Part shown: one piece after another, positions 1 through 13,374 of the stretch
Position numbering within the stretch: position 1 is the first letter of the stretch
How the letters are laid out: every line of letters starts with the position of its first letter
Virus record (IMG/VR): IMGVR_UViG_648276644_000006
Reading direction: 5' to 3' (one strand)
Source: a virus
Lineage: Duplodnaviria; Heunggongvirae; Uroviricota; Caudoviricetes
Length of the DNA stretch: 25,376 nt
Program-made: the position numbers and the translations under genes
Notes under the pieces: model-generated
The model's input: only the letters and a program-made list of their open reading frames with translations
What the model was told of the DNA's origin: nothing
The model's database searches: none

Positions 1-1053
1 TTACGGGGTAATGCCAACCGCTGCCGCCACTTTGTCGCCACTTGGCAGCGTTGCCAGAGGATTGAAACGGAGCGCCGTTTCCAGATGATCCGGTGCCAGA
101 TGTGCGTAACGCATAGTCATTTTTATATCGTGGTGTCCGAGAATTTTTTGTAAGGCCAGAATGTTTCCACCCGACATCATGAAGTGCGCCGCAAACGTAT
201 GGCGCAGAACGTGTGTGAGTTGACCGCGAGGGAGCACGATAGACGTTTTTTCCATCACGGATAAAAATTGAAAATAGCAGTCTGTGAAGAAATTGAACCC
301 ATCAAGCGCCATGATCTCTTCGTAAAGCTCTTTACTGATAGGGATGCTTCTGTTTTTCTTCCCCTTCGTTCTGACAAAGGTAATTCGGTATTTGGTCACC
401 TGTGAGCGAGTAAGATTTACGGCTTCACGCCAGCGTGCGCCTGTGCTTAAGCATATCTTAACTACCAGTGCCAGAATTGGGTCCTGACGTTTGCAATCAG
501 CCAGCAATTCAACAATCTGCTCATGGGTAAGCCATGCCATCTCTTTTTCTGCGATGGTGAATTTTCGCATGTTCTCCAGTGGGTTCGGATACGACCATTC
601 GCCCAGACGGGATAGTTCGCTAAAAACACTACTTAGATAGCTTTGCTCCAGGTTAATGGTGACCGGGCTTGCTCCTTTCTTCCATTTCTCGCTGAAGTAG
701 ATCTCGCCTGTCAGGCGTTTATCTCGATAGTGGGCAAACATTTTAGAGGTGAGATCGGTTGCAAGAGGATTGCCCAGAGCGTCAACCATCAACAGCAATT
801 TGTCATAGACATGCTGCCCAGCTGTCAGAGATTTACCATGTAGTTTGAACCATAGTTCAACCACGTCTTTCAGTGTTCGACGATCCACTGATTCACCCAG
901 CCAGGGCTTTGCTTCGGTTTCTTCCATCGTGTGACGCTCAAAAGCCAGAGCTTCGCCTTTGGTGGCGAATTGTTTACGCACACGACGTCCACTACGTCCG
1001 GCGGGGTAACATTCGCAAAGCCATTTTCCTGTGGTGAGTTTTCGTACTGCCAT
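1..1053 (-). CDS. int: Phage tyrosine integrase (P2/186 family), 350 aa, complete; stop codon at window bases 1-3
   Basis: Translation carries the conserved tyrosine-recombinase C-terminal region (CLSTGARWREA ... LRHTFAAHFMMSGGNILALQKILGHHDIKMTMRYAHLAP) and sits next to a leftward repressor gene as in P2-like prophages. Confidence 0.9.
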   Translation of the reverse strand: MAVRKLTTGKWLCECYPAGRSGRRVRKQFATKGEALAFERHTMEETEAKPWLGESVDRRTLKDVVELWFKLHGKSLTAGQHVYDKLLLMVDALGNPLATDLTSKMFAHYRDKRLTGEIYFSEKWKKGASPVTINLEQSYLSSVFSELSRLGEWSYPNPLENMRKFTIAEKEMAWLTHEQIVELLADCKRQDPILALVVKICLSTGARWREAVNLTRSQVTKYRITFVRTKGKKNRSIPISKELYEEIMALDGFNFFTDCYFQFLSVMEKTSIVLPRGQLTHVLRHTFAAHFMMSGGNILALQKILGHHDIKMTMRYAHLAPDHLETALRFNPLATLPSGDKVAAAVGITP

Positions 1054-1136: not shown

Positions 1137-2813
1137 CTAAGCAACATGCAGTTCATCGTTGGCGGAAGTTGCTGCTTTGCGCTCTTGCTCAATCGCCAGT
1201 GACTCTCTATATTCTTTCGCTTCCGCAAACATTGTCCATTGTGCGTTGATGTTCATATCTTCAATAACAGACTTAATTTCTTTAATATTTACGTTGAAAA
1301 ACTCTTTTCGTGAGTTAATTTTATTGACCTGTTTTTCGTTGAAGACTTTATGCAGATGATTTTCTAATGATGGTGCATCATCACTATAAATCATCGCATG
1401 AACATCGAACGAAAAAGGAACACTAGCATCACCGAGTTCACGAACACGATCAAGTGGTTCAAGGCGGCGTGTCATTCCAATTTTATATACATCTTCGCCA
1501 AATGAGCCAATATTACTAATTATATAAACGTGGCCTGATCTAGTTTGTTGAGCCATAGAAATAGCTCGTTGGTTTTTAGCTTCAGCTTCTTCATATTTTA
1601 ACTGTAGTTCAGCTATTTTTTGCTCTAAAGCTAAGCGTTGTTCTTCATTTGCAAGCATAAGCTCTTTTGTTGCTTTATTTATAGCTTGCTGAATAGCTTT
1701 CTCTTCTTTTTCAGCTTCTTTTATCGCTTTTTCATACTCCCTACGAGCTCTTTCCTCTTCACGAAGTTGTTCTTTAATCCTTCTTTGCTCTTCTTTTTCT
1801 TCGAGCATAATTTCATTAACTGCAACTCCCCATTTTAGCTCGTTGAGTCGAGCTTGAAGATAGATGTCACTTATTTTTGCGGACCTAAAGGCAGAACCAT
1901 TGTAATTTACAAGTTGAAACGCATCTTTTATCTCTTGGGAAAGTTTTCCAAAATTGTTGTGTTTGACTTTTGATAAAATACTGTCAACTCTTCCATTGAA
2001 GGCATCTAAAACAAAGTTGATAGCAGTATTACGCCTGTTTTGTTCAACATAATCACACGAAGCAGCTTTATTAGTTTTTATTAATGATTTTGTTAACTCC
2101 CTGGCTTTTTGTAATTCCTTACCTGCATCTGTAAACTCATAATTTTCTGCCAATTCATCGAGAACGCTACGGTTAGGGATGATCCATTCATCACCATAAC
2201 CTTCAATTTTATTTTTCATTGATTTGGCAACTGCTTCATATTTTTCTGCAAACTCTTTAGCTTCATATGCTGAACCAGCAATCTCTTTTGCTCTTTCTTC
2301 TGCATCGGAAATAATTTTCACTGCATTGTCATTAGCATTTGAGATCAGCTCATTTGCTTTACTATTGGCATTATCAAGACGTTCTTTAGCTTTCAGGCGT
2401 GCATCGCGAGCGTCTTTAGTAATTGCTATAGCTTCGCTATTAGCGTTGCTTATTTTTATCTGAGCTTGATAATTTGCTTCGTTTACTGTCTTAGCAGCCT
2501 TTATTTGGGCTTCTTCTATTTTTTGCTTGGCTATTGAGTCTGCATTTTTTATCTTATTCTCTGCTTCCATCACTGCGCTGTGCAATTCTACGTATTGCCA
2601 TAATGGCGCAGCTCGTCCTTCAAGCTCTGATAGATCTCGTACAGTCTGTGCTAATTCTTCTTGATTTTCTTTCAGTTGGTTGGAAAGGGCTATGTTGTTA
2701 GCTGTCAAGGTATTTATAGCCGCTTTATATTTTTTGCTTTGCTTAAATAATATTACAGCTAGAATGGGGGCGAGAAATGCTAATAAGAATATAACGATGG
2801 AAAATGAATTCAT
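1137..2813 (-). CDS. Cargo protein, 558 aa: N-terminal transmembrane anchor, long coiled-coil/low-complexity region, C-terminal T5orf172 (GIY-YIG-like nuclease superfamily) domain; DUF4041-like architecture; candidate superinfection-exclusion/defence protein
   Basis: Hydrophobic N-terminus MNSFSIVIFLLAFLAPILAVILF; Ala/Lys/Glu/Asn-rich heptad-like repeats; C-terminal motif GHVYIISNIGSFGEDVYKIGMTRRLEPLDRVRELGDASVPFSFDVHAMIYSDDAPSLENHLHKVFNEKQVNKINSRKEFFNV typical of T5orf172/MUG113 domains. Gene is strongly AT-rich by eye and starts 20 bp after the cI stop, with an AAGGA Shine-Dalgarno upstream. Confidence 0.75.
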   Translation of the reverse strand: MNSFSIVIFLLAFLAPILAVILFKQSKKYKAAINTLTANNIALSNQLKENQEELAQTVRDLSELEGRAAPLWQYVELHSAVMEAENKIKNADSIAKQKIEEAQIKAAKTVNEANYQAQIKISNANSEAIAITKDARDARLKAKERLDNANSKANELISNANDNAVKIISDAEERAKEIAGSAYEAKEFAEKYEAVAKSMKNKIEGYGDEWIIPNRSVLDELAENYEFTDAGKELQKARELTKSLIKTNKAASCDYVEQNRRNTAINFVLDAFNGRVDSILSKVKHNNFGKLSQEIKDAFQLVNYNGSAFRSAKISDIYLQARLNELKWGVAVNEIMLEEKEEQRRIKEQLREEERARREYEKAIKEAEKEEKAIQQAINKATKELMLANEEQRLALEQKIAELQLKYEEAEAKNQRAISMAQQTRSGHVYIISNIGSFGEDVYKIGMTRRLEPLDRVRELGDASVPFSFDVHAMIYSDDAPSLENHLHKVFNEKQVNKINSRKEFFNVNIKEIKSVIEDMNINAQWTMFAEAKEYRESLAIEQERKAATSANDELHVA

Positions 2814-2833: not shown

Positions 2834-3430
2834 TTAATTTGAAACTATTGTACTTCTTATACAAGCAACTACTTCAATATCAGAAAATGCACATTCAAAG
2901 CTATTCTCTGTACTTGTAATTTTAATCATACCTTTTGGAAGCTTTGTGATTTTTCGAATGGAATAGGTTCCGTCGATGTTGATTAACCAGTGCCCATCAA
3001 GTACTTCAGAAAATTTTTGATCACAAATGTATGTGACGAGCCCATCCTGAATAACAATTGGTGATGAAAGATTTGCAGGAAGAAATGATGAATCGAAGAC
3101 ATATGAACCATCTTCAATCATTTTGCCTGCGGTAAGGCGAAACTTGGCAAGCTCTTCTGTAGCTGCTGTCAGCGAGCTTTGCTTAAGGCCTTGCCCGGTG
3201 GTTAACCATTTCAGTGAGGTTCCTGTTTCAAGAGCACATTGGATTATCCAGTCTGCAGGAAACGTATCCCGCAAATACCTGTTCGCCAGAGTGCTTTTTG
3301 ATACTTCCAAGTGATCAGCTAAAGCCTGTCGTGTCGTAAAGCCATAAGCTTCGACTAATCGCTCAATCGCAGCCTTACCACCTTTATTGGGATTTATTTT
3401 GATCTCATTTGGGTACTTTGATGTTGACAT
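2834..3430 (-). CDS. cI: Phage CI repressor, 186-type (HTH N-terminal domain plus C-terminal oligomerisation domain), 198 aa
   Basis: ERLVEAYGFTTRQALADHLEVSKSTLANRYLRD ... CALETGTSLKWLTTGQG matches the 186 CI-type HTH domain family; leftward orientation next to int; divergent from the early operon. Confidence 0.85.
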   Translation of the reverse strand: MSTSKYPNEIKINPNKGGKAAIERLVEAYGFTTRQALADHLEVSKSTLANRYLRDTFPADWIIQCALETGTSLKWLTTGQGLKQSSLTAATEELAKFRLTAGKMIEDGSYVFDSSFLPANLSSPIVIQDGLVTYICDQKFSEVLDGHWLINIDGTYSIRKITKLPKGMIKITSTENSFECAFSDIEVVACIRSTIVSN

Positions 3431-5330: not shown

Positions 5331-6184
5331 GCACCATCTTGAAATGGGCGGGAAATAAAACCGCCGTAATGTCCGAACTGAAAAAACATCTTCCTGCTGG
5401 TCCGCGACTAGTTGAACCTTTCGCGGGTTCCTGTGCTGTGATGATGGAGACGGATTATCCCTGCTATCTGGTTGCGGATATTAATCCTGATTTAATCAAC
5501 CTCTATAAAAAGGTTGCCGCTGATTGTGAATCGTTTATATCTCGCGCCAAAGTTTTATTTGAGATCGCAAACAGGGAGGTGGCTTATTACAACATAAGGC
5601 AGGAGTTTAATTACTCAACTGAAATTACTGATTTCATGAAAGCGGTATATTTCCTGTATCTCAATCGTCACGGTTACCGTGGGTTATGTCGCTATAACAA
5701 GAGCGGGCATTTCAACATTCCCTACGGTAATTATAAAAATCCGTATTTCCCTGAAAAAGAAATTCGCGCTTTTGCAGAAAAAGCCCAGCGAGCAACGTTT
5801 ATCTGCGCCAGCTTTGATGAAACGCTGGCGATGTTGAAGGCGGGGGATGTGGTGTATTGCGATCCGCCTTATGACGGTACGTTTTCCGGCTATCACGCTG
5901 ACGGCTTTACTGAAGATGACCAGTATCACCTGGCATCCGTTCTTGAACATCGGTCATCAGAAGGACATCCGGTCATTGTTTCTAACAGTGACACATCCCT
6001 GATCCGTTCGCTGTATCGCAATTTTACTCACCACTATATCAAGGTAAAACGCAGCATCGGCGTAGCAGCTGGTGAGAGTAAATCAGCAAAAGAAATCATT
6101 GCTGTTTCCGGGCCGCGCTGCTGGGTGGGATTTGATTATTCGCGTGGCGTGGATAGTTCTGCCGTGTACGGAGTACGTGCATGA
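5327..6184 (+). CDS. dam: Orphan DNA adenine (N6) methyltransferase, Dam family, 285 aa
   Basis: N-terminal SAM-binding region (LKWAGNK ... [10 protein letters not shown]) and the catalytic DPPY motif (VYCDPPYDG) line up with E. coli Dam; no adjacent restriction endonuclease gene; GGAGG Shine-Dalgarno before ATG 5327. Confidence 0.9.
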
Positions 6185-8034
6185 GCCATGCCGATATGAG
6201 CAACTGCTGCGGCTTTAACGAGGCTGCCGCATCGTTCTCATGGAACAGCCCGAAAAAGGCCATTAACCCTTATCTGGACCCGGCGGAAGTTGCGCCGGTT
6301 TCTGCGCTTTCAAACCTGATCACTCTGTACGCTGCCGATAACGAGCAGGAACAACTGCGCCGCGAGGCACTGAGTGATCAGGTCTGGGAGCGTTATTTCT
6401 TTAATGAATCCCGTGATCCTGTCCAACGCGAAATAGAGCAGGATAAGCTCATTAGCCGGGCAAAGTTGGCGCATGAGCAGCAGCGTTTTAACCCGGACAT
6501 GGTCATTCTGGCAGACGTCAGCGCCCAGCCCTCCCATATCAGCAAGCCGCTGATGCAACGTATTGAATACTTCAGCAGCCTGGGCAGGCCAAAGGCTTAT
6601 TCCCGCTATTTACGTGAGACGATTAAGCCATGTCTGGAACGACTGGAGCATGTACGCGACAGCCAGCTATCTGCATCTTTTCGTTTTATGGCAAGCCATG
6701 TAGGGCTGGACGGCCTGCTGATTCTGCCTGAAATGAGTCAGGATCAGGTGAAACGCCTGTCTACCCTTGTCGCTGCGCATATGAGCATGTGCCTTGATGC
6801 AGCTTGTGGTGATTTGTATGCCACCGATGACGTTAAGCCAGAAGAAATCCGCAAGACATGGGAAAAGGTGGCAGCGGAAACCCTGCGTCTGGATGTCATC
6901 CCGCCTGCGTTTGAGCAACTCCGTCGGAAAAGAAACCGCCGTAAACCCGTGCCCTATGAACTCATTCCGGGTTCGCTGGCGCGTATGTTGTGCGCCGACT
7001 GGTGGTACCGGAAATTATGGAAAATGCGTTGCGAATGGCGGGAAGAGCAGTTGCGTGCTGTCTGCCTGGTCAGCAAAAAAGCATCTCCCTATGTCAGCTA
7101 TGAAGCCGTGATGCATAAACGTGAGCAGCGCCGCAAGTCACTGGAGTTTTTCCGTTCTCATGAACTGGTGAACGAAGAGGGCGACACGCTGGATATGGAA
7201 GACGTGGTAAACGCCAGCAGCAGCAACCCGGCGCACCGCCGCAATGAGATGATGGCCTGTGTTAAAGGTCTGGAGCTTATCGCGGAAATGCGCGGTGACT
7301 GCGCCGTTTTCTACACCATTACCTGTCCGTCACGTTTCCATTCCACGCTCAATAACGGCAGACCAAACCCAACCTGGACAAATGCGACGGTAAGACAAAG
7401 CAGCGATTATCTGGTCGGCATGTTTGCTGCATTTCGTAAGGCGATGCACAAAGCCGGGTTGCGCTGGTATGGCGTGCGGGTGGCTGAGCCGCATCATGAC
7501 GGTACAGTTCACTGGCACCTGTTGTGTTTCATGCGCAAAAAAGACCGCCGCGCCATTACTGCATTGTTGCGTAAGTTTGCCATCCGTGAAGACCGCGAGG
7601 AACTGGGTAATAACACTGGTCCACGCTTTAAATCTGAGCTGATAAACCCGCGCAAAGGAACGCCGACAAGCTACATCGCGAAATACATCAGTAAGAACAT
7701 TGACGGGCGTGGTCTGGCTGGCGAGATCAGCAAGGAAACGGGTAAATCCCTGCGTGATAACGCTGAATACGTTAATGCCTGGGCGTCTCTGCATCGTGTT
7801 CAGCAATTCCGCTTCTTTGGTATTCCGGGACGTCAGGCTTACCGTGAACTTCGCTTGCTGGCTGGTCAGGCGGCAAGGCAACAGGGTGACAAAAAGCAGG
7901 TGCGCCGGTACTGGATAACCCGCGTCTTGATGCCATTCTGGCTGCTGCTGATGCTGGTGTTTTGCCACCTACATCATGAAGCAGGGCGGCGTACTGGTTC
8001 CCCGCAAATATCACCTCATCAGAACCGCTTATGA
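6181..8034 (+). CDS. A: Replication initiation endonuclease A (P2 gpA / 186 A family, rolling-circle initiator), N-terminal and central part; reading frame is lost near 7895
   Basis: 617-aa ORF in the A position after dam, with the gpA-like catalytic region (HWHLLCF, tyrosine-rich YIAKYISKN segment). The last roughly 45 codons ([26 protein letters not shown]...) look like out-of-frame translation. Confidence 0.8.
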
Positions 8035-8593
8035 AATCAACGAAGAGCCAACCGCCTATGGCGATCACGGTATTCGTATTTATGGCATCTGGTCACCCAT
8101 TGCAGAGGGCAAGATCTGCACTCATGCAGTGAAGTGGAAAATGGTTCGTAAGGCCGTTGACGTTCAGGAGGCGGCAGCCGACCAGGGCGCTTGCGCCCCT
8201 TGGACTCGTGGCAATAACTGTCCCCTTGCTGAAAATTTGAACCAACAGGAGAAAGATAAATCAGCTGATGGGGACCCCAGAACGGACATTACCAGCATGG
8301 ATGACAAGGAGTTGCACGATTACCTGCACAGTATGAGCAAAAAAGAGCGCCGGGAACTGGCAGCAAGGTTACGCCTGGTGAAACCGAAACGGCGTAAAGA
8401 CTACAAACAGCGAATTACAGACCATCAGCGACTGCAGCTCGTGTATGAGCTGAAGTCCAGAGGATTTGATGGCAGCGAGAAAGAGGTTGATTTACTCCTT
8501 CGCGGAGGCAGTATTCCGTCAGGAGCAGGCCTGCGTATCTTCTATCGGAACCAGCGTTTGCAGGAAGATGATCAGTGGCGGAACCTGTATTAA
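7976..8593 (+). CDS. A: C-terminal portion of replication protein A, encoded in a different frame from the upstream A ORF (frameshifted gene or sequencing error)
   Basis: 205-aa ORF overlapping the end of the 6181-8034 ORF in another frame; combined length of the two pieces is in the range of intact A proteins; the third frame across 7890-7976 is also open and protein-like. Confidence 0.6.
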
Positions 8594-8685
8594 TTACGCG
8601 GGTTAACAATTCGTGCTCTTAATAATACCAGGCATATCAGGCTGATGAACGTAAAAAAACGTTTTACATCAGTAAGATTATTATA

Positions 8686-8705
8686 TACTGTAAATATAAA
8701 CAGTG
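8686..8705 (+). promoter_or_regulatory. LexA (SOS) box overlapping an AT-rich promoter-like region
   Basis: TACTGTAAATATAAACAGTG matches the CTGT-N8-ACAG SOS box consensus with the AT-rich centre; lies about 45 bp upstream of the small ORF and DinI-like gene. Confidence 0.6.
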
Positions 8706-8746
8706 GTTATGGATACAGTATTGCGTGTGGTGTCATAGGAGGAAAG

Positions 8747-8935
8747 ATGCAGGACTATTTTTTGGAGTCTTTGAAGCTCCAGCGCATTGATTTTTTTCTT
8801 AAGCTTGTAGCGGCTAGTGAGTGTAGTGATGAAGAGAAGGGGCTGGCTTTGCAGTGGGTTTCTGAACTAACAGATGAACTCATGGCAAAAATCAGAACCC
8901 ACGAATACAACCGCTCAATGGATGTCATCAGTTGA
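8747..8935 (+). CDS. Small SOS-regulated hypothetical protein, 62 aa (possible Tum-like antirepressor position)
   Basis: Strong AGGAGGA Shine-Dalgarno 4-6 nt upstream of ATG 8747, downstream of the LexA box; the longer 96-aa ORF from 8645 would start upstream of the box and is less likely. Confidence 0.45.
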   Translation: MQDYFLESLKLQRIDFFLKLVAASECSDEEKGLALQWVSELTDELMAKIRTHEYNRSMDVIS

Positions 8936-8945
8936 GGTGACTTTT

Positions 8946-9179
8946 ATGCGCATTGAAATAATGATCGATAAAGAGCAGAAGATTAGCCAGTCTATCCTGG
9001 ACGCCCTTGAATCCGAGCTTTACCGCAATCTGCGCCCCCTGTATCCCAAAACGGTAATCCGTATCCGTAAAGGTAGCTCTAACGGTGTGGAACTTACCGG
9101 ACTGCAACTGGACGAAGAAAGAAAACAAGTGATGAAAATTATGCAGAAAGTGTGGGAAGACGACAGCTGGCTGCATTAA
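8946..9179 (+). CDS. DinI-family protein (SOS-response modulator of RecA), 77 aa
   Basis: MRIEIMIDKEQKISQSILDALESELYRNL ... VWEDDSWL resembles DinI/MsgA (MRIEV..., acidic WxxxDxW tail); GAGGTG Shine-Dalgarno before ATG 8946. Confidence 0.8.
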   Translation: MRIEIMIDKEQKISQSILDALESELYRNLRPLYPKTVIRIRKGSSNGVELTGLQLDEERKQVMKIMQKVWEDDSWLH

Positions 9180-9371
9180 GAAACGTTGCCCCCAAGAGGA
9201 TTCATTCGAATGGGGGCTAGTTTGGGCAATGAGTGAAATAAGGCGTAAGGCGTAAGGTGGGGGGGCATTTTGATAAATGATCGTCCGCTTTGTGCCAGAA
9301 GCGAACGTTTCTTCTGCTATCTTTCGTCAATTAACGAATGGCAGACTAATTTGCAACGGATAATCTGAATT

Positions 9372-9399
9372 TTGTAAGATTATGGGTATTCCTATAATA
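9372..9399 (+). promoter_or_regulatory. Putative sigma70 promoter for the KAP NTPase gene: -35 TTGTAA, 16-bp spacer, -10 TATAAT
   Basis: Perfect -10 hexamer at 9394-9399 with a 4/6 -35 at 9372-9377, about 100 bp upstream of the first in-frame ATG of the KAP gene. Confidence 0.35.
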
Positions 9400-9507
9400 T
9401 TTACCAATAATAACCTTACAATGTACACTACCTATTGAATTTTCCATAGTTGGCCTTTGGCTCTACTTACCATCTATGTTTATGTATTTTATCAAAATGG
9501 ACTAAAA

Positions 9508-11400
9508 ATGCACAATACGTACATCAAAGACTATATAGAATATTACCTTAGCCTTAAAACTGAACCTCAATACGCCATTATGCTTAAAGGTGCTTGGGGA
9601 TCAGGTAAAACTTGGTTCATTGAACGAGTTCTTGAAGAATATAAGCAAAAGCATTCAGAGTTCAAATTTCTTAAAGTGAGTTTGTATGGCGTCAACTCTA
9701 TTGAGCAGATTGAAGATGAGTTCTATCGTCAACTTCATCCTATTCTATCAAACAAAGCCCTTATCTTTGGTGCAAATGTACTAAAAAATACGCTTAAGGC
9801 TACTTTCAAGATCGATTTCAATGGCGATAATAAGTCTGACGTAGATGTCAATGCCAGTGTCCCCACCATTAATCTTAGCGACTTTAGCAGAGAACCAGAT
9901 GGTTTTGTGCTGGTCTTTGATGATATCGAGAGAGCTGGTATAGATTTACCAATCTTATTTGGATATATAAATCACTTTGTAGAAGTAAACGGATACAAAG
10001 CGATCCTGGTTGCCAATGAAGAAGAAATAATCAACAGAGAAAAGCGAATAAATAATGATGATGAGAAATCTAGCAGTGAATACATAAGAACAAAAGAAAA
10101 GCTTGTAGGTAAAACATTTGAAGTAACGTCAGATTTACCTAGTGCTTGTAATGTTTTCTTGGGCGTAATTAGTAGTTTACACGTAGCTAATATATTTAAA
10201 GAAGATATGCAGACCATAGAACACCTCTATGTGTCGGCGAAATATAATAATCTAAGACATTTGAGGCAGTTCTTTCTTGATGTACAACGCATCATTTCCC
10301 TTTTGGGAGATAAATATGTCAGCAACGACGATTTTATGAAAGTATTTTTCCAGCAGTTATTAATTTTCTCGATGGAGTACCGGGGAGGGAACCTTAACTA
10401 CGAGGATTTCAATTCAATCGGCAATGTAAATTATAGTATGTTTTTAGATAAAGGGCGTACCAAAACTAAGTATGACATGATCGTCGAGAAATATTCATCA
10501 CCTGTATTAACCGAGACGTTACTGGATGGTGCGTACTGGAGAGAGCTAATCTGTGATGGAAAGGTAACGCATGATCTTCTCGCTCAGCTGGATATTACGC
10601 GATTTTTTAGAAGCACCGATGCCCAAGCATGGGAGTATTTGTGGAACTATCGAGAACTTAATGAAACTATGCTTAATGAACAGTACGCCATTGCCAAGGA
10701 TAATCTATTTTCAGGTAAGATCACTTCCTTAGGTGAACTCCTGATGACCGCGAGTATTTTGCTGGCATTGGCGAAAGAAGGTTTAACCACAGATGCTGTT
10801 GATGACATTATAAATGAGACAAAACATCATATAGATATTTATTACAATGGATTAGGACCTGAAGATATACATCAGGAGTATGCGCAAAGACATTATAATG
10901 AGTTAATGGCATGGCGTGGCTTTGGTTTTCTTGACAGGGATAGCGATGAATTCAAACTCATTATTGAGCATATTAAGATAGCGCAGAAGAAACGGTTTGA
11001 TGAATCAATTCCGGAGTTTGCATTGAAGTTCAGCGATGAGTTGCAAAGAGGGAATTTATCGTTTGTATCTGAATTGTGTCATTCTAATAATAGGCAGCTA
11101 AATCTTCATAACGTGCCTTTTTTACACTTGGTTTCTCCTGAAGTTTTCATTGAAAGCTATAGGAAACTTGACCCAATCATCATGAGGAAACTGGCATTTA
11201 GCTTGAGGGATCGTTATTCTGATAGGGATGCCAGAACCAGACTGACCGAAGAATACAACTGGTTGATTAGCCTAAAAGAGATAGCTGTAGATTTCACTCA
11301 AAACGCAGCCAATAACTCCTTTCAGGTTTTTCATGTAAAGTTTTTTATTGACTATGCACTAACTAATGCAATCAAATTATTTACTGAGGGAACTGATTAA
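9508..11400 (+). CDS. KAP-family P-loop NTPase, about 630 aa (start uncertain; an alternative TTG lies at 9457); candidate defence/cargo gene
   Basis: N-terminal Walker A in the KAP-type form GAWGSGKT (LKGAWGSGKTWFIERV); a hydrophobic stretch followed by two acidic residues (FVLVFDDIERAG), Walker B-like; large size; gene and flanks are conspicuously AT-rich compared with the phage backbone. Confidence 0.65.
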   Translation: MHNTYIKDYIEYYLSLKTEPQYAIMLKGAWGSGKTWFIERVLEEYKQKHSEFKFLKVSLYGVNSIEQIEDEFYRQLHPILSNKALIFGANVLKNTLKATFKIDFNGDNKSDVDVNASVPTINLSDFSREPDGFVLVFDDIERAGIDLPILFGYINHFVEVNGYKAILVANEEEIINREKRINNDDEKSSSEYIRTKEKLVGKTFEVTSDLPSACNVFLGVISSLHVANIFKEDMQTIEHLYVSAKYNNLRHLRQFFLDVQRIISLLGDKYVSNDDFMKVFFQQLLIFSMEYRGGNLNYEDFNSIGNVNYSMFLDKGRTKTKYDMIVEKYSSPVLTETLLDGAYWRELICDGKVTHDLLAQLDITRFFRSTDAQAWEYLWNYRELNETMLNEQYAIAKDNLFSGKITSLGELLMTASILLALAKEGLTTDAVDDIINETKHHIDIYYNGLGPEDIHQEYAQRHYNELMAWRGFGFLDRDSDEFKLIIEHIKIAQKKRFDESIPEFALKFSDELQRGNLSFVSELCHSNNRQLNLHNVPFLHLVSPEVFIESYRKLDPIIMRKLAFSLRDRYSDRDARTRLTEEYNWLISLKEIAVDFTQNAANNSFQVFHVKFFIDYALTNAIKLFTEGTD

Positions 11401-11834: not shown

Positions 11835-12410
11835 ATGCTTTTACCCGTAAGTGTTACATCGTGTGGCTTGTATCACCCCTACTGGCATTTGGGAGAGCGC
11901 AACCCTCATAGCGATGAACTATCAAGGCAGATGATGGATTTTAAGGATGAAAATAATCGTAATCATCAAAGGGCTATTAACCGTTTTTCTCGATTAGCTA
12001 TAGATAAGGTTGGGCGGTTAGTAATCAGAGGTGGCGGTGGGCGTTTTGTTGAGTCTCCTTTTTCGATAGCAGTCGTCCCATCTCACACTGAAGGCAGAAT
12101 TTCACCGGCTTTGATTGAGGTCGCCGAGCGAATCGTAAATGTTCACCGTCGGGGCATTGTTGATTGCTGTTTGGAAAGAACACGCACTGTTCCTAGCGCA
12201 CATCGTGAAGGAGGAGATCGCTCAATTACTGGTCACATGTCTAGTATCAGAGTTAGGGGTGGTAACCTCATGGGGCGAAATGTGTTACTACTAGATGATG
12301 TTAAAACAACAGGCGGTAGTTTGTCTGCGTGTTTTTATTTACTGGAGTCTGCAGGAGCTGGAGTTATAATGCCATTAGCTCTGCTAGAAACTGCAAACTA
12401 TGAGGAGTAG
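11835..12410 (+). CDS. Phosphoribosyltransferase (PRTase) domain protein, ComF-like, 191 aa (start uncertain; in-frame ATGs also at 11931 and 11934)
   Basis: Canonical PRPP-binding loop VLLLDDVKTTGGSLSAC near the C-terminus; glycine-rich loop RGGGGR upstream; stop overlaps the start of the next gene. Confidence 0.7.
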   Translation: MLLPVSVTSCGLYHPYWHLGERNPHSDELSRQMMDFKDENNRNHQRAINRFSRLAIDKVGRLVIRGGGGRFVESPFSIAVVPSHTEGRISPALIEVAERIVNVHRRGIVDCCLERTRTVPSAHREGGDRSITGHMSSIRVRGGNLMGRNVLLLDDVKTTGGSLSACFYLLESAGAGVIMPLALLETANYEE

Positions 12411-13374
12411 CAAAGTGCACTCAGAAGAATTAAAAAATACACTTGGATTAGCTATTCAAATCGGGAAGCTAGCATCTGATCAAAGTGTATTGAAATTCTT
12501 TGAGCTTATTGATTTTGATGTTATTCGTGATATACGCGACTTAACTGAGATGGTTAATAGCCACGGGTTTCTAAAAGATAAAATATCTGAGACTGATTTT
12601 CTAATAGCGAATGCTGAATTGGAGAACCACCATGTTAATGGTGTGGAGCTAATACCATATGGGTCTGAATTCTATCCTCTTAGTTTAGCGTTTACTCCTA
12701 ATCCACCATCAATTCTCTACATAAAAGGGGATAAAAGTATACTAAAAGAATTGCCGGGTGTCGCAATTGTAGGATCCCGTGATACTTCCCCTGCAGGGGA
12801 AGAAATAACGAGGCGAATCACTAATCAGATAGTGTCTGCTGGGTATATTGTTGTAAGTGGGTTAGCAATAGGCACTGATGCGAATGCTCATAAGGCAACG
12901 TTACAAGCAAAAGGAAAAACCATTGCTGTCTTGGCGCATGGTCTTGAGGAGGCTAAGCCGAAGCAAAACAGTCGACTTGCTCAAGAGATTCTGGATAAAG
13001 GTGGTGCATGGATTTCTGAGTATCCTATGGGGCGACCGGCCCAGAAACAATCATTTGTACAAAGAAATCGGATACAAGTTGGATTATCTGCAGGTTCAAT
13101 TTTAATCGAGGCTGCGTTAAATAGCGGAACGATAACTCAAGCTGAGTTTGCAAATAAGGCGAAAAGACCAGTGTTTGCGGTTGTACCTCACCTACCTAAT
13201 AATCCGCTTAATCTTAATTGTGAGGGAACAGTTGATTTAGTTAAGAGCAACATGGCTAGAGCGTTAAAAACAAAACGGGATTATGATGATGTGATTATGA
13301 TCATAAATGAGTCTCGGGAGTATTTGTTAGAGCTAAAATGGCCAGGGAAACAGAGTACATTAGACTTGATTTAA
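12400..13374 (+). CDS. DprA/Smf-like (SLOG/Rossmann-fold DNA-processing protein A family) protein, 324 aa
   Basis: YPLSLAFTPNPPSILYIKGDKSILKELPGVAIVGSRDTSPAGEE ... VVSGLAIGTDANAHKATLQAKGKTIAVLAHGLEE ... QRNRIQVGLSAGSILIEAALNSGTITQAEFANKAKRPVFAV follows the DprA domain pattern (PP-LF-GxxxxL; VAIVGSR; SGxAxGxDxxAH; TIAVLxxGL; RNRI; SGTxxTAxxA). ATG 12400 overlaps the PRTase stop by 11 nt (ATGAGGAGTAG); an alternative GTG at 12415 has a GAGGAG Shine-Dalgarno. Confidence 0.8.
   Translation: MRSSKVHSEELKNTLGLAIQIGKLASDQSVLKFFELIDFDVIRDIRDLTEMVNSHGFLKDKISETDFLIANAELENHHVNGVELIPYGSEFYPLSLAFTPNPPSILYIKGDKSILKELPGVAIVGSRDTSPAGEEITRRITNQIVSAGYIVVSGLAIGTDANAHKATLQAKGKTIAVLAHGLEEAKPKQNSRLAQEILDKGGAWISEYPMGRPAQKQSFVQRNRIQVGLSAGSILIEAALNSGTITQAEFANKAKRPVFAVVPHLPNNPLNLNCEGTVDLVKSNMARALKTKRDYDDVIMIINESREYLLELKWPGKQSTLDLI

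Follow-up and report, generated by a model that had tools for sequence, protein, structure and literature searches.

A putative LexA-controlled split-tum operon in a Fels-2/186-like prophage

Phage 186 is induced via its LexA-regulated promoter p95 and the Tum protein, which sequesters the CI repressor in a reversible manner (PMC7708051). In the annotation of the 186 record, p95 consists of the hexamers TTCACA and TACTGT separated by 18 nt, and the -10 hexamer lies inside the LexA site, just after gene A. Tum is a single protein of 146 aa in which an N-terminal antirepressor domain is joined to a DinI-like domain, and its gene also yields in-frame shorter products. The record places the DinI homology inside tum, states that the in-frame C-terminal products "modulate SOS induction", and gives orf97, the gene after tum, as unrelated. 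A passage in Lemire et al. 2011 (PMC3121763), citing Bunny et al. 2002, reports that tum is split in two in Fels-2 and PSP3. For PSP3, a passage of the same paper quotes a personal communication from G. E. Christie, according to which the antirepressor activity resides in the upstream gene. Fels-2 has also been linked to lexA-null lethality (PMC3121763). The Gifsy GfoA/GftA systems follow the same logic, with a LexA-repressed operon that encodes a small antirepressor and a DinI-like protein, and with a non-cleavable repressor (PMC3121763). They differ in that dinI comes first in the operon and in that the antirepressor and repressor families appear to be unrelated. The split-tum arrangement is already published, and the module described here is this known Fels-2/186-type DNA-damage switch.

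The stretch of DNA analyzed here (the window; 25.4 kb) is a Fels-2/186-like prophage of the P2 family (Peduoviridae). The genes were found in the order integrase, PD-Lambda-1 gene, 186-type CI, CII, Fil-like gene, DksA-like gene, Dam methylase, gene A, SOS module, cargo and late genes. The late genes, 3' of the cargo island, include portal, terminase, scaffold, capsid and others. The gene between CII and the DksA-like gene is putatively Fil-like, an assignment made by synteny with close relatives. An earlier note on this DNA had proposed that a 186-like prophage has its SOS module here, in the place corresponding to that of p95-tum in 186, and this holds, as the module was found directly 3' of gene A. 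The landmarks outside the module are the following:

1-1053, minus strand: integrase
1137-2813, minus strand: PD-Lambda-1 defence gene, 558 aa, with DUF4041 and T5orf172/MUG113 (PADLOC, E 5e-120)
2834-3430, minus strand: CI immunity repressor of the 186 type (Pfam), 198 aa, presumed target of TumA
6181-8593, directly 5' of the SOS module: replication gene A

The module itself and the hairpin behind it comprise these elements:

8663-8668, plus strand: putative -35 hexamer TTTACA, invariant in 8 diverged Fels-2-like loci with variable flanks
8686-8691, plus strand: -10 hexamer TACTGT, inferred by comparison with 186 p95; left arm of LexA box 1, invariant in the same alignment
8686-8705, plus strand: LexA box 1 (distal), TACTGTAAATATAAACAGTG
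8701-8720, plus strand: LexA box 2 (proximal, degenerate), CAGTGGTTATGGATACAGTA, conserved in relatives
8737-8742, plus strand: Shine-Dalgarno sequence AGGAGG of the tumA-like gene, invariant in 8 relatives
8747-8935, plus strand: tumA-like gene, 62 aa, ATG at 8747 and TGA at 8933-8935, predicted CI antirepressor
8934-8940, plus strand: tumB Shine-Dalgarno sequence GAGGTGA, which shares bases with the stop codon of tumA
8946-9179, plus strand: tumB, 77 aa, DinI-like
9188-9217, plus strand: GC-rich hairpin after tumB, fold of -17.8 kcal/mol with a z of only -1.6

We read this region as the split-tum SOS operon of a Fels-2/186-like prophage, in which LexA would control a TumA antirepressor and an accessory protein, TumB, and we put the probability of this reading at roughly 0.8. 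We infer LexA binding, SOS inducibility and the binding of TumA to CI from 186, PSP3 and Fels-2.

The LexA operator that had been proposed at 8686-8705 was borne out. Compared with TACTG(TA)5CAGTA, box 1 has 3 mismatches, and its CTGT-N8-ACAG core is intact. No other LexA-like site occurs in the window, and 100 dinucleotide shuffles yielded no 20-mer match at 3 or fewer mismatches. The 16-mer core is also unique in the window, where 0.28 occurrences would be expected by chance. In the promoter-like region that overlaps the operator, the hexamers TTTACA and TACTGT are separated by 17 nt and have the architecture of 186 p95, and they are conserved. In contrast, a generic sigma-70 promoter scan called no promoter at the LexA box, because the -10 hexamer is weak (3/6). 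The operators of 8 Fels-2-like relatives with diverged flanks were aligned, and the conserved islands were AAAAA..TTTTACA, TACTGTA, the right arm of the box, GGTTAT..TACAGT, the Shine-Dalgarno sequence and the ATG.

Written as 16-mers, box 1 covers 8688-8703 and box 2, a GTG-N10-CAG sequence, covers 8703-8718, so that the two overlap by one base. The left arm of box 2 is GTG where CTG would be expected; TACAG at 8714-8718 is invariant in the 8 relatives. Colicin-type double operators are defined by two CTG-N10-CAG-type 16-mers with an overlap of 1-2 bases and a degenerate proximal one, and this is what was found. The operator thus looks like a colicin-type double SOS box, and a second LexA dimer would probably sit on box 2. 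Since 186, PSP3 and three distant relatives have a single LexA box each, the double operator is a feature of the Fels-2 promoter-tumA block.

Double overlapping SOS boxes are known from colicin N, cloacin DF13 and the ColE1 type. The tumA operator, TACTGTA..ACAGTGGTTATG..TACAGTATT, aligns with those upstream of the colicin N and cloacin genes at ~84-86% over about 35-42 nt. The operator match was found on small plasmids, and the two examined sit upstream of a colicin N gene (L012 1201-1243) and a cloacin gene (L013 58-99), respectively. Many other plasmids were matched in the same search, including 48 from Yersinia. Like the colicin N and cloacin operators, that of tumA has an unusual left arm, GTGG, in its proximal box, and its two 16-mers share one base. 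In colicin N, the distal box is the stronger and the proximal box the weaker one (PMC2994835). Unlike in the bacteriocin operons, the controlled gene here is a prophage antirepressor gene and the -35 position is different. The likeness suggests that a promoter-operator cassette was exchanged between Col plasmids and Fels-2-like phages, or else strong convergence.

The operator is followed by the small ORF of 62 aa with a strong Shine-Dalgarno sequence that had been described, AGGAGG at 8737-8742 preceding the ATG at 8747. An alignment of its product to Tum, as asked for in the earlier note, was obtained with profiles and not pairwise. Pairwise BLASTP gave no alignment for the ORF with 186 Tum, for the ORF with PSP3 TumA, or for TumA with Tum, because the proteins are too short and too diverged, and therefore profiles were needed. 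Searched against the PHROGs, the 62-aa ORF matched phrog_698 (E 3.6e-38), phrog_8554 (2.4e-8) and phrog_1993 (0.002). The N-terminal 70 aa of 186 Tum matched phrog_1993 (1.5e-23), phrog_8554 (3.4e-12) and phrog_698 (5.9e-6), with Tum residues 6-44 aligned in register to positions 6-44 of phrog_698. PSP3 TumA is a member of phrog_1993. A first hhalign comparison with a narrow alignment (Neff 1.4) gave a probability of 38%. Addition of relatives at 29-45% identity from an exhaustive profile search raised this to 95.8% (E 7e-9) for the broad ORF-family alignment against the Tum N-terminal alignment, columns 4-45 pairing with columns 4-45 without gaps. The ORF family and Tum have a common motif, E-x5-[QE]R[IV]-[DE]-hh-x-[KR]L, followed by a Cys-containing turn and [DE][KR]-x2-A-x3-h-x-E-[LI]. 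In an AlphaFold2 model (pLDDT 87), the 62-aa protein is a helical hairpin of helices 2-23 and 28-61 with the conserved Cys in the loop. Foldseek searches with this hairpin returned generic helical hairpins alone (E > 0.7), and a sequence search of the PDB found nothing for TumA and DinI alone for the C-terminal half. Judged by the profile comparisons, the 62-aa ORF is a homologue of the Tum N-terminal domain (about residues 4-45) that is encoded as a separate gene.

The presence of a DinI-family gene downstream was likewise confirmed. The tumB product matched Pfam DinI (PF06183) with an E value of 1.3e-22 and 80.4 bits (cut-off 24.2) over the full model, positions 1-63 of 63. Against PRK10597, the NCBIfam equivalog of chromosomal DinI, it reached 42 bits and remained below the cut-off of 111. 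By these scores, TumB is a DinI-like phage paralogue and not an orthologue of host DinI. It is 41% identical to residues 71-145 of 186 Tum and 77% identical to PSP3 TumB. Based on the N-terminal and C-terminal Tum homologies of the two ORFs, the locus is tum split into tumA and tumB. Two statements of the earlier note have to be corrected accordingly. It had the LexA-repressed promoter of 186 drive Tum together with a DinI homologue, whereas what resembles DinI in 186 is the C-terminal half of Tum, and orf97 is unrelated. It had also taken the 62-aa ORF for a possibly novel or truncated antirepressor. The ORF is neither, because the Tum N-terminal domain is encoded as its own gene and the DinI-like gene is the other half, a split that is published.

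The closest described relative is the Fels-2 pair STM2728/STM2726.1, located after gpA. Its DNA is 96.9% identical, and TumA is identical at 61/62 and TumB at 76/77 positions. The two modules also agree in promoter, double LexA operator, spacing and the +1 frame offset of the genes. The Fels-2 record itself ties its DinI gene to PSP3 TumB. Fels-2 differs in that an orf97-like gene lies downstream, where PDC-S49 and ShosTA are found here, in that its CI is 42% identical, and in that gene A is frameshifted in the window. The 186 locus p95-tum-orf97 shares the LexA box over the promoter -10 just after gene A, and its N-terminal antirepressor domain, its DinI-like domain and its 186-type CI, in which no peptidase domain was detected, all have counterparts here. 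It differs in that both domains reside in one protein, compared with two ORFs here, in its single LexA box and in the presence of orf97, which is absent here. The N-terminal domain is similar at the profile level only. In PSP3, tumA and tumB are two separate genes behind a LexA box, as here. In contrast to the operon described here, PSP3 has a single LexA box and a TumA that belongs to the 186-like phrog_1993, which the present ORF matched only at E 0.002.

In PSP3 (L003 5135-5554), one reading frame contains both tumA and tumB, which a single TAG codon separates (TAG-ATT before the tumB ATG). Read-through of this TAG would recreate a 186-like fused Tum. Such a read-through fusion is not conserved, because the genes of the Fels-2 group are separated by 10-13 nt and their frames are offset by 1 or 2. 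In the window, tumA and tumB are two ORFs in different frames, 10 nt apart. A hairpin at 8924-8941, covering the tumA stop codon and the tumB Shine-Dalgarno sequence, was considered as a translational-coupling device and dropped. We make no claim of coupling or of a programmed frameshift, because this hairpin is not conserved in SEN8, SopEphi or the Klebsiella relatives, and the offset in frame is 1 in some phages and 2 in others.

The small ORF is conserved across related prophages. At the DNA level, the module is 97-98% identical to that of many Klebsiella, Salmonella and E. coli phages, and it was found in 1125 of 5426 complete E. coli genomes (about 21%). Both proteins are 100% identical in E. 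coli 22AR0118 and ML35, the two close relatives examined. Synonymous to nonsynonymous codon differences in tumA against six diverged relatives were 17:7, 18:7, 18:10, 17:7, 4:0 and 3:1, and by this measure the 62-aa ORF is under purifying selection. The TumA family comprises 482 protein clusters (90% identity), predominantly stand-alone proteins of about 60-70 aa, from the Enterobacterales genera Escherichia, Salmonella, Klebsiella, Enterobacter, Citrobacter, Kosakonia, Pectobacterium and Lonsdalea. The exhaustive profile search gave 87 representatives, nearly all stand-alone proteins of 55-75 aa. No phrog_698-DinI fusion was found among them; longer matches were mis-called starts or chimeric ORFs.

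Three distant TumA homologues (34%, 45% and 29% identity) each lie directly after gene A and behind the canonical LexA boxes TACTGTATATGCATACAGTG, TACTGTACACATATACAGTT and TACTGTATATTAATACAGTA. The two with enough flanking sequence belong to prophages with a Phage_CI_repr plus Phage_CI_C repressor. In two of the three distant contexts the DinI gene is absent, and thus the LexA box and TumA form the conserved core, with TumB as an accessory. SOS modules with tumA alone (29-34% identity) were seen at L016 6001-6207, L017 6001-6207 and L020 449-643, where the next gene is ogr/portal or AbiC-like.

These distributions bear on an alternative in which Tum would consist of two subunits. Neither TumA nor TumB would then act alone, and antirepression would require both, the DinI-like half included, in a Tum-like heterodimer. 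In favour of this, 186 makes both halves as one polypeptide, inhibition of CI is annotated for full-length Tum, and the spacing of tumA and tumB is always 10-13 nt in the Fels-2-like phages. However, the distant TumA homologues of L016, L017 and L020 lie behind LexA boxes without any DinI gene. In phage Cartapus, TumA is identical at 62/62 positions and TumB at just 65/77, showing that tumA and tumB recombine independently rather than co-evolve. In addition, a passage in PMC3121763 reports the upstream gene of PSP3 alone as the antirepressor. We therefore regard an obligate two-subunit Tum as improbable. Slightly less probable again is that the 62-aa ORF encodes an SOS-induced small protein with another job, such as control of host cell division or replication, or modulation of RecA or LexA, and that the prophage is induced otherwise. 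Such a role would fit with the family's label of unknown or hypothetical in the PHROGs and RefSeq, with the generic nature of the helical-hairpin fold, and with the pairing of an identical protein with rather different CI alleles. Against it speak the profile homology to the Tum N-terminal domain, the invariant place 3' of gene A and downstream of a LexA box, and a CI that has the two 186-type Pfam domains alone and no peptidase domain. That a once-fused tum decayed into a non-functional fragment and a DinI gene, as the ORF's length of less than half of Tum and the frameshift in the adjoining gene A might suggest, is effectively refuted by conservation, namely by a Shine-Dalgarno sequence for each ORF, the synonymous excess, the many stand-alone clusters across the Enterobacterales and the identical sequence found in further E. 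coli prophages whose gene A is intact.

Under the preferred reading of a split-tum antirepressor operon, LexA would be bound in the undamaged lysogen to an operator lying across the -10 and start region of the p95-like promoter. One LexA dimer would occupy the distal box at 8686-8705 and probably a second one the overlapping proximal box at 8701-8720, as in the colicin operators. Upon DNA damage, activated RecA would promote self-cleavage of LexA and the promoter would be turned on, giving two small proteins from closely spaced genes. TumA would then bind the 186-type CI (2834-3430) and block its binding to the operator, in a stoichiometric and reversible manner that leaves CI uncleaved. Sequestration of CI would derepress the early lytic promoter. 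TumB may act as an accessory that tunes the response, probably via RecA filaments, like DinI.

The CI protein is full length and matched Phage_CI_repr (8e-32) and Phage_CI_C (4e-27). Searched against Pfam at E 0.001, it matched no further family, and hence no peptidase domain through which RecA might act on it directly. We aligned this CI with that of 186 and with those of relatives (L004 3270-3839, L005 2986-3555, L014 3492-4124), in all of which relatives TumA is identical or near-identical. The CI is 55% identical to those of the E. coli relatives and 42% identical to that of Fels-2, with the N-terminal DNA-binding domain better conserved than the C-terminal one. Either TumA recognises a conserved surface of CI, or recognition of the present CI should not be taken for granted. 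Because the same TumA accompanies CIs that are 42-55% identical, allele-specific recognition of the CI in the window is assumed. The pairing hints at a broad antirepressor specificity of TumA. Two further proposals, that the colicin-type double box is shared with Col plasmids by recombination and that the nearly invariant TumA is a generalist antirepressor of heteroimmune CI alleles, are tentative, and we think them possible with the odds against them. If the double box were true, induction in the Fels-2-like lineage would be late and all-or-none, unlike in the single-box phages 186 and PSP3. If TumA were a generalist, the induction of co-resident 186-like prophages would be coupled.

In sequence, the promoter and the operator are intact, as are the genes tumA, tumB and cI. 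With the SOS trigger in this state, DNA damage should still derepress the prophage. Gene A carries two 1-nt deletions relative to Fels-2 and the E. coli relatives, A6 to A5 near 7890 and GGTTG to GGTG near 7957, which split the gene into ORFs of 617 aa and 205 aa. None of the 1256 E. coli genomes with the gene has these deletions, the best matches having 503 nt compared with 501 nt. The two deletions may be private mutations that inactivate the gene, or else sequencing errors. Should they be real, replication and hence phage yield would be expected to fail despite derepression. Any defect would then stem from the frameshifted replication gene and not from the switch.

The main value of the analysis lies in the annotation of the 62-aa protein. 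Its database labels are inconsistent and include "hypothetical protein", "unknown function" (PHROGs) and, in some Klebsiella phage and UniRef entries, "levan regulatory (domain) protein". Database versions of 84-101 aa start at upstream ATGs 5' of the promoter. The evidence supports naming phrog_698/WP_001154434 TumA, SOS antirepressor. For damage sensing by P2/186-like prophages, the colicin-like double operator and the relatives with TumA alone add small points that can be tested.

Just past the stop codon of the DinI-like gene, at about 9177-9189, the phage homology breaks off and variable cargo begins. The GC-rich hairpin at 9188-9217 may be a terminator, weak or partial; in 186, the partial terminator t95a occupies the corresponding position. 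In a terminator scan, the terminator-like hairpins were weak, and an Rfam scan of 8300-9600 gave nothing credible. Between tumB and portal lies a hotspot in which defence cargo takes the place of 186 orf97 (9508-11400, 11835-12410 and 12400-13374). The cargo includes a KAP-family P-loop NTPase that matches PADLOC PDC-S49 (E 6e-161) and, again by PADLOC, a ShosT/ShosA (Shosta) pair, ShosA being a DprA-like protein (E 3e-70). PADLOC matched neither TumA nor TumB. As a weaker extension of the split-tum reading, read-through of the poor terminator might put PDC-S49 and ShosTA under SOS control, as is the case for orf97 in 186. A second defence gene position is the interval between int and cI, where close E. 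coli relatives have a small YdcA-family or hypothetical gene instead of PD-Lambda-1.
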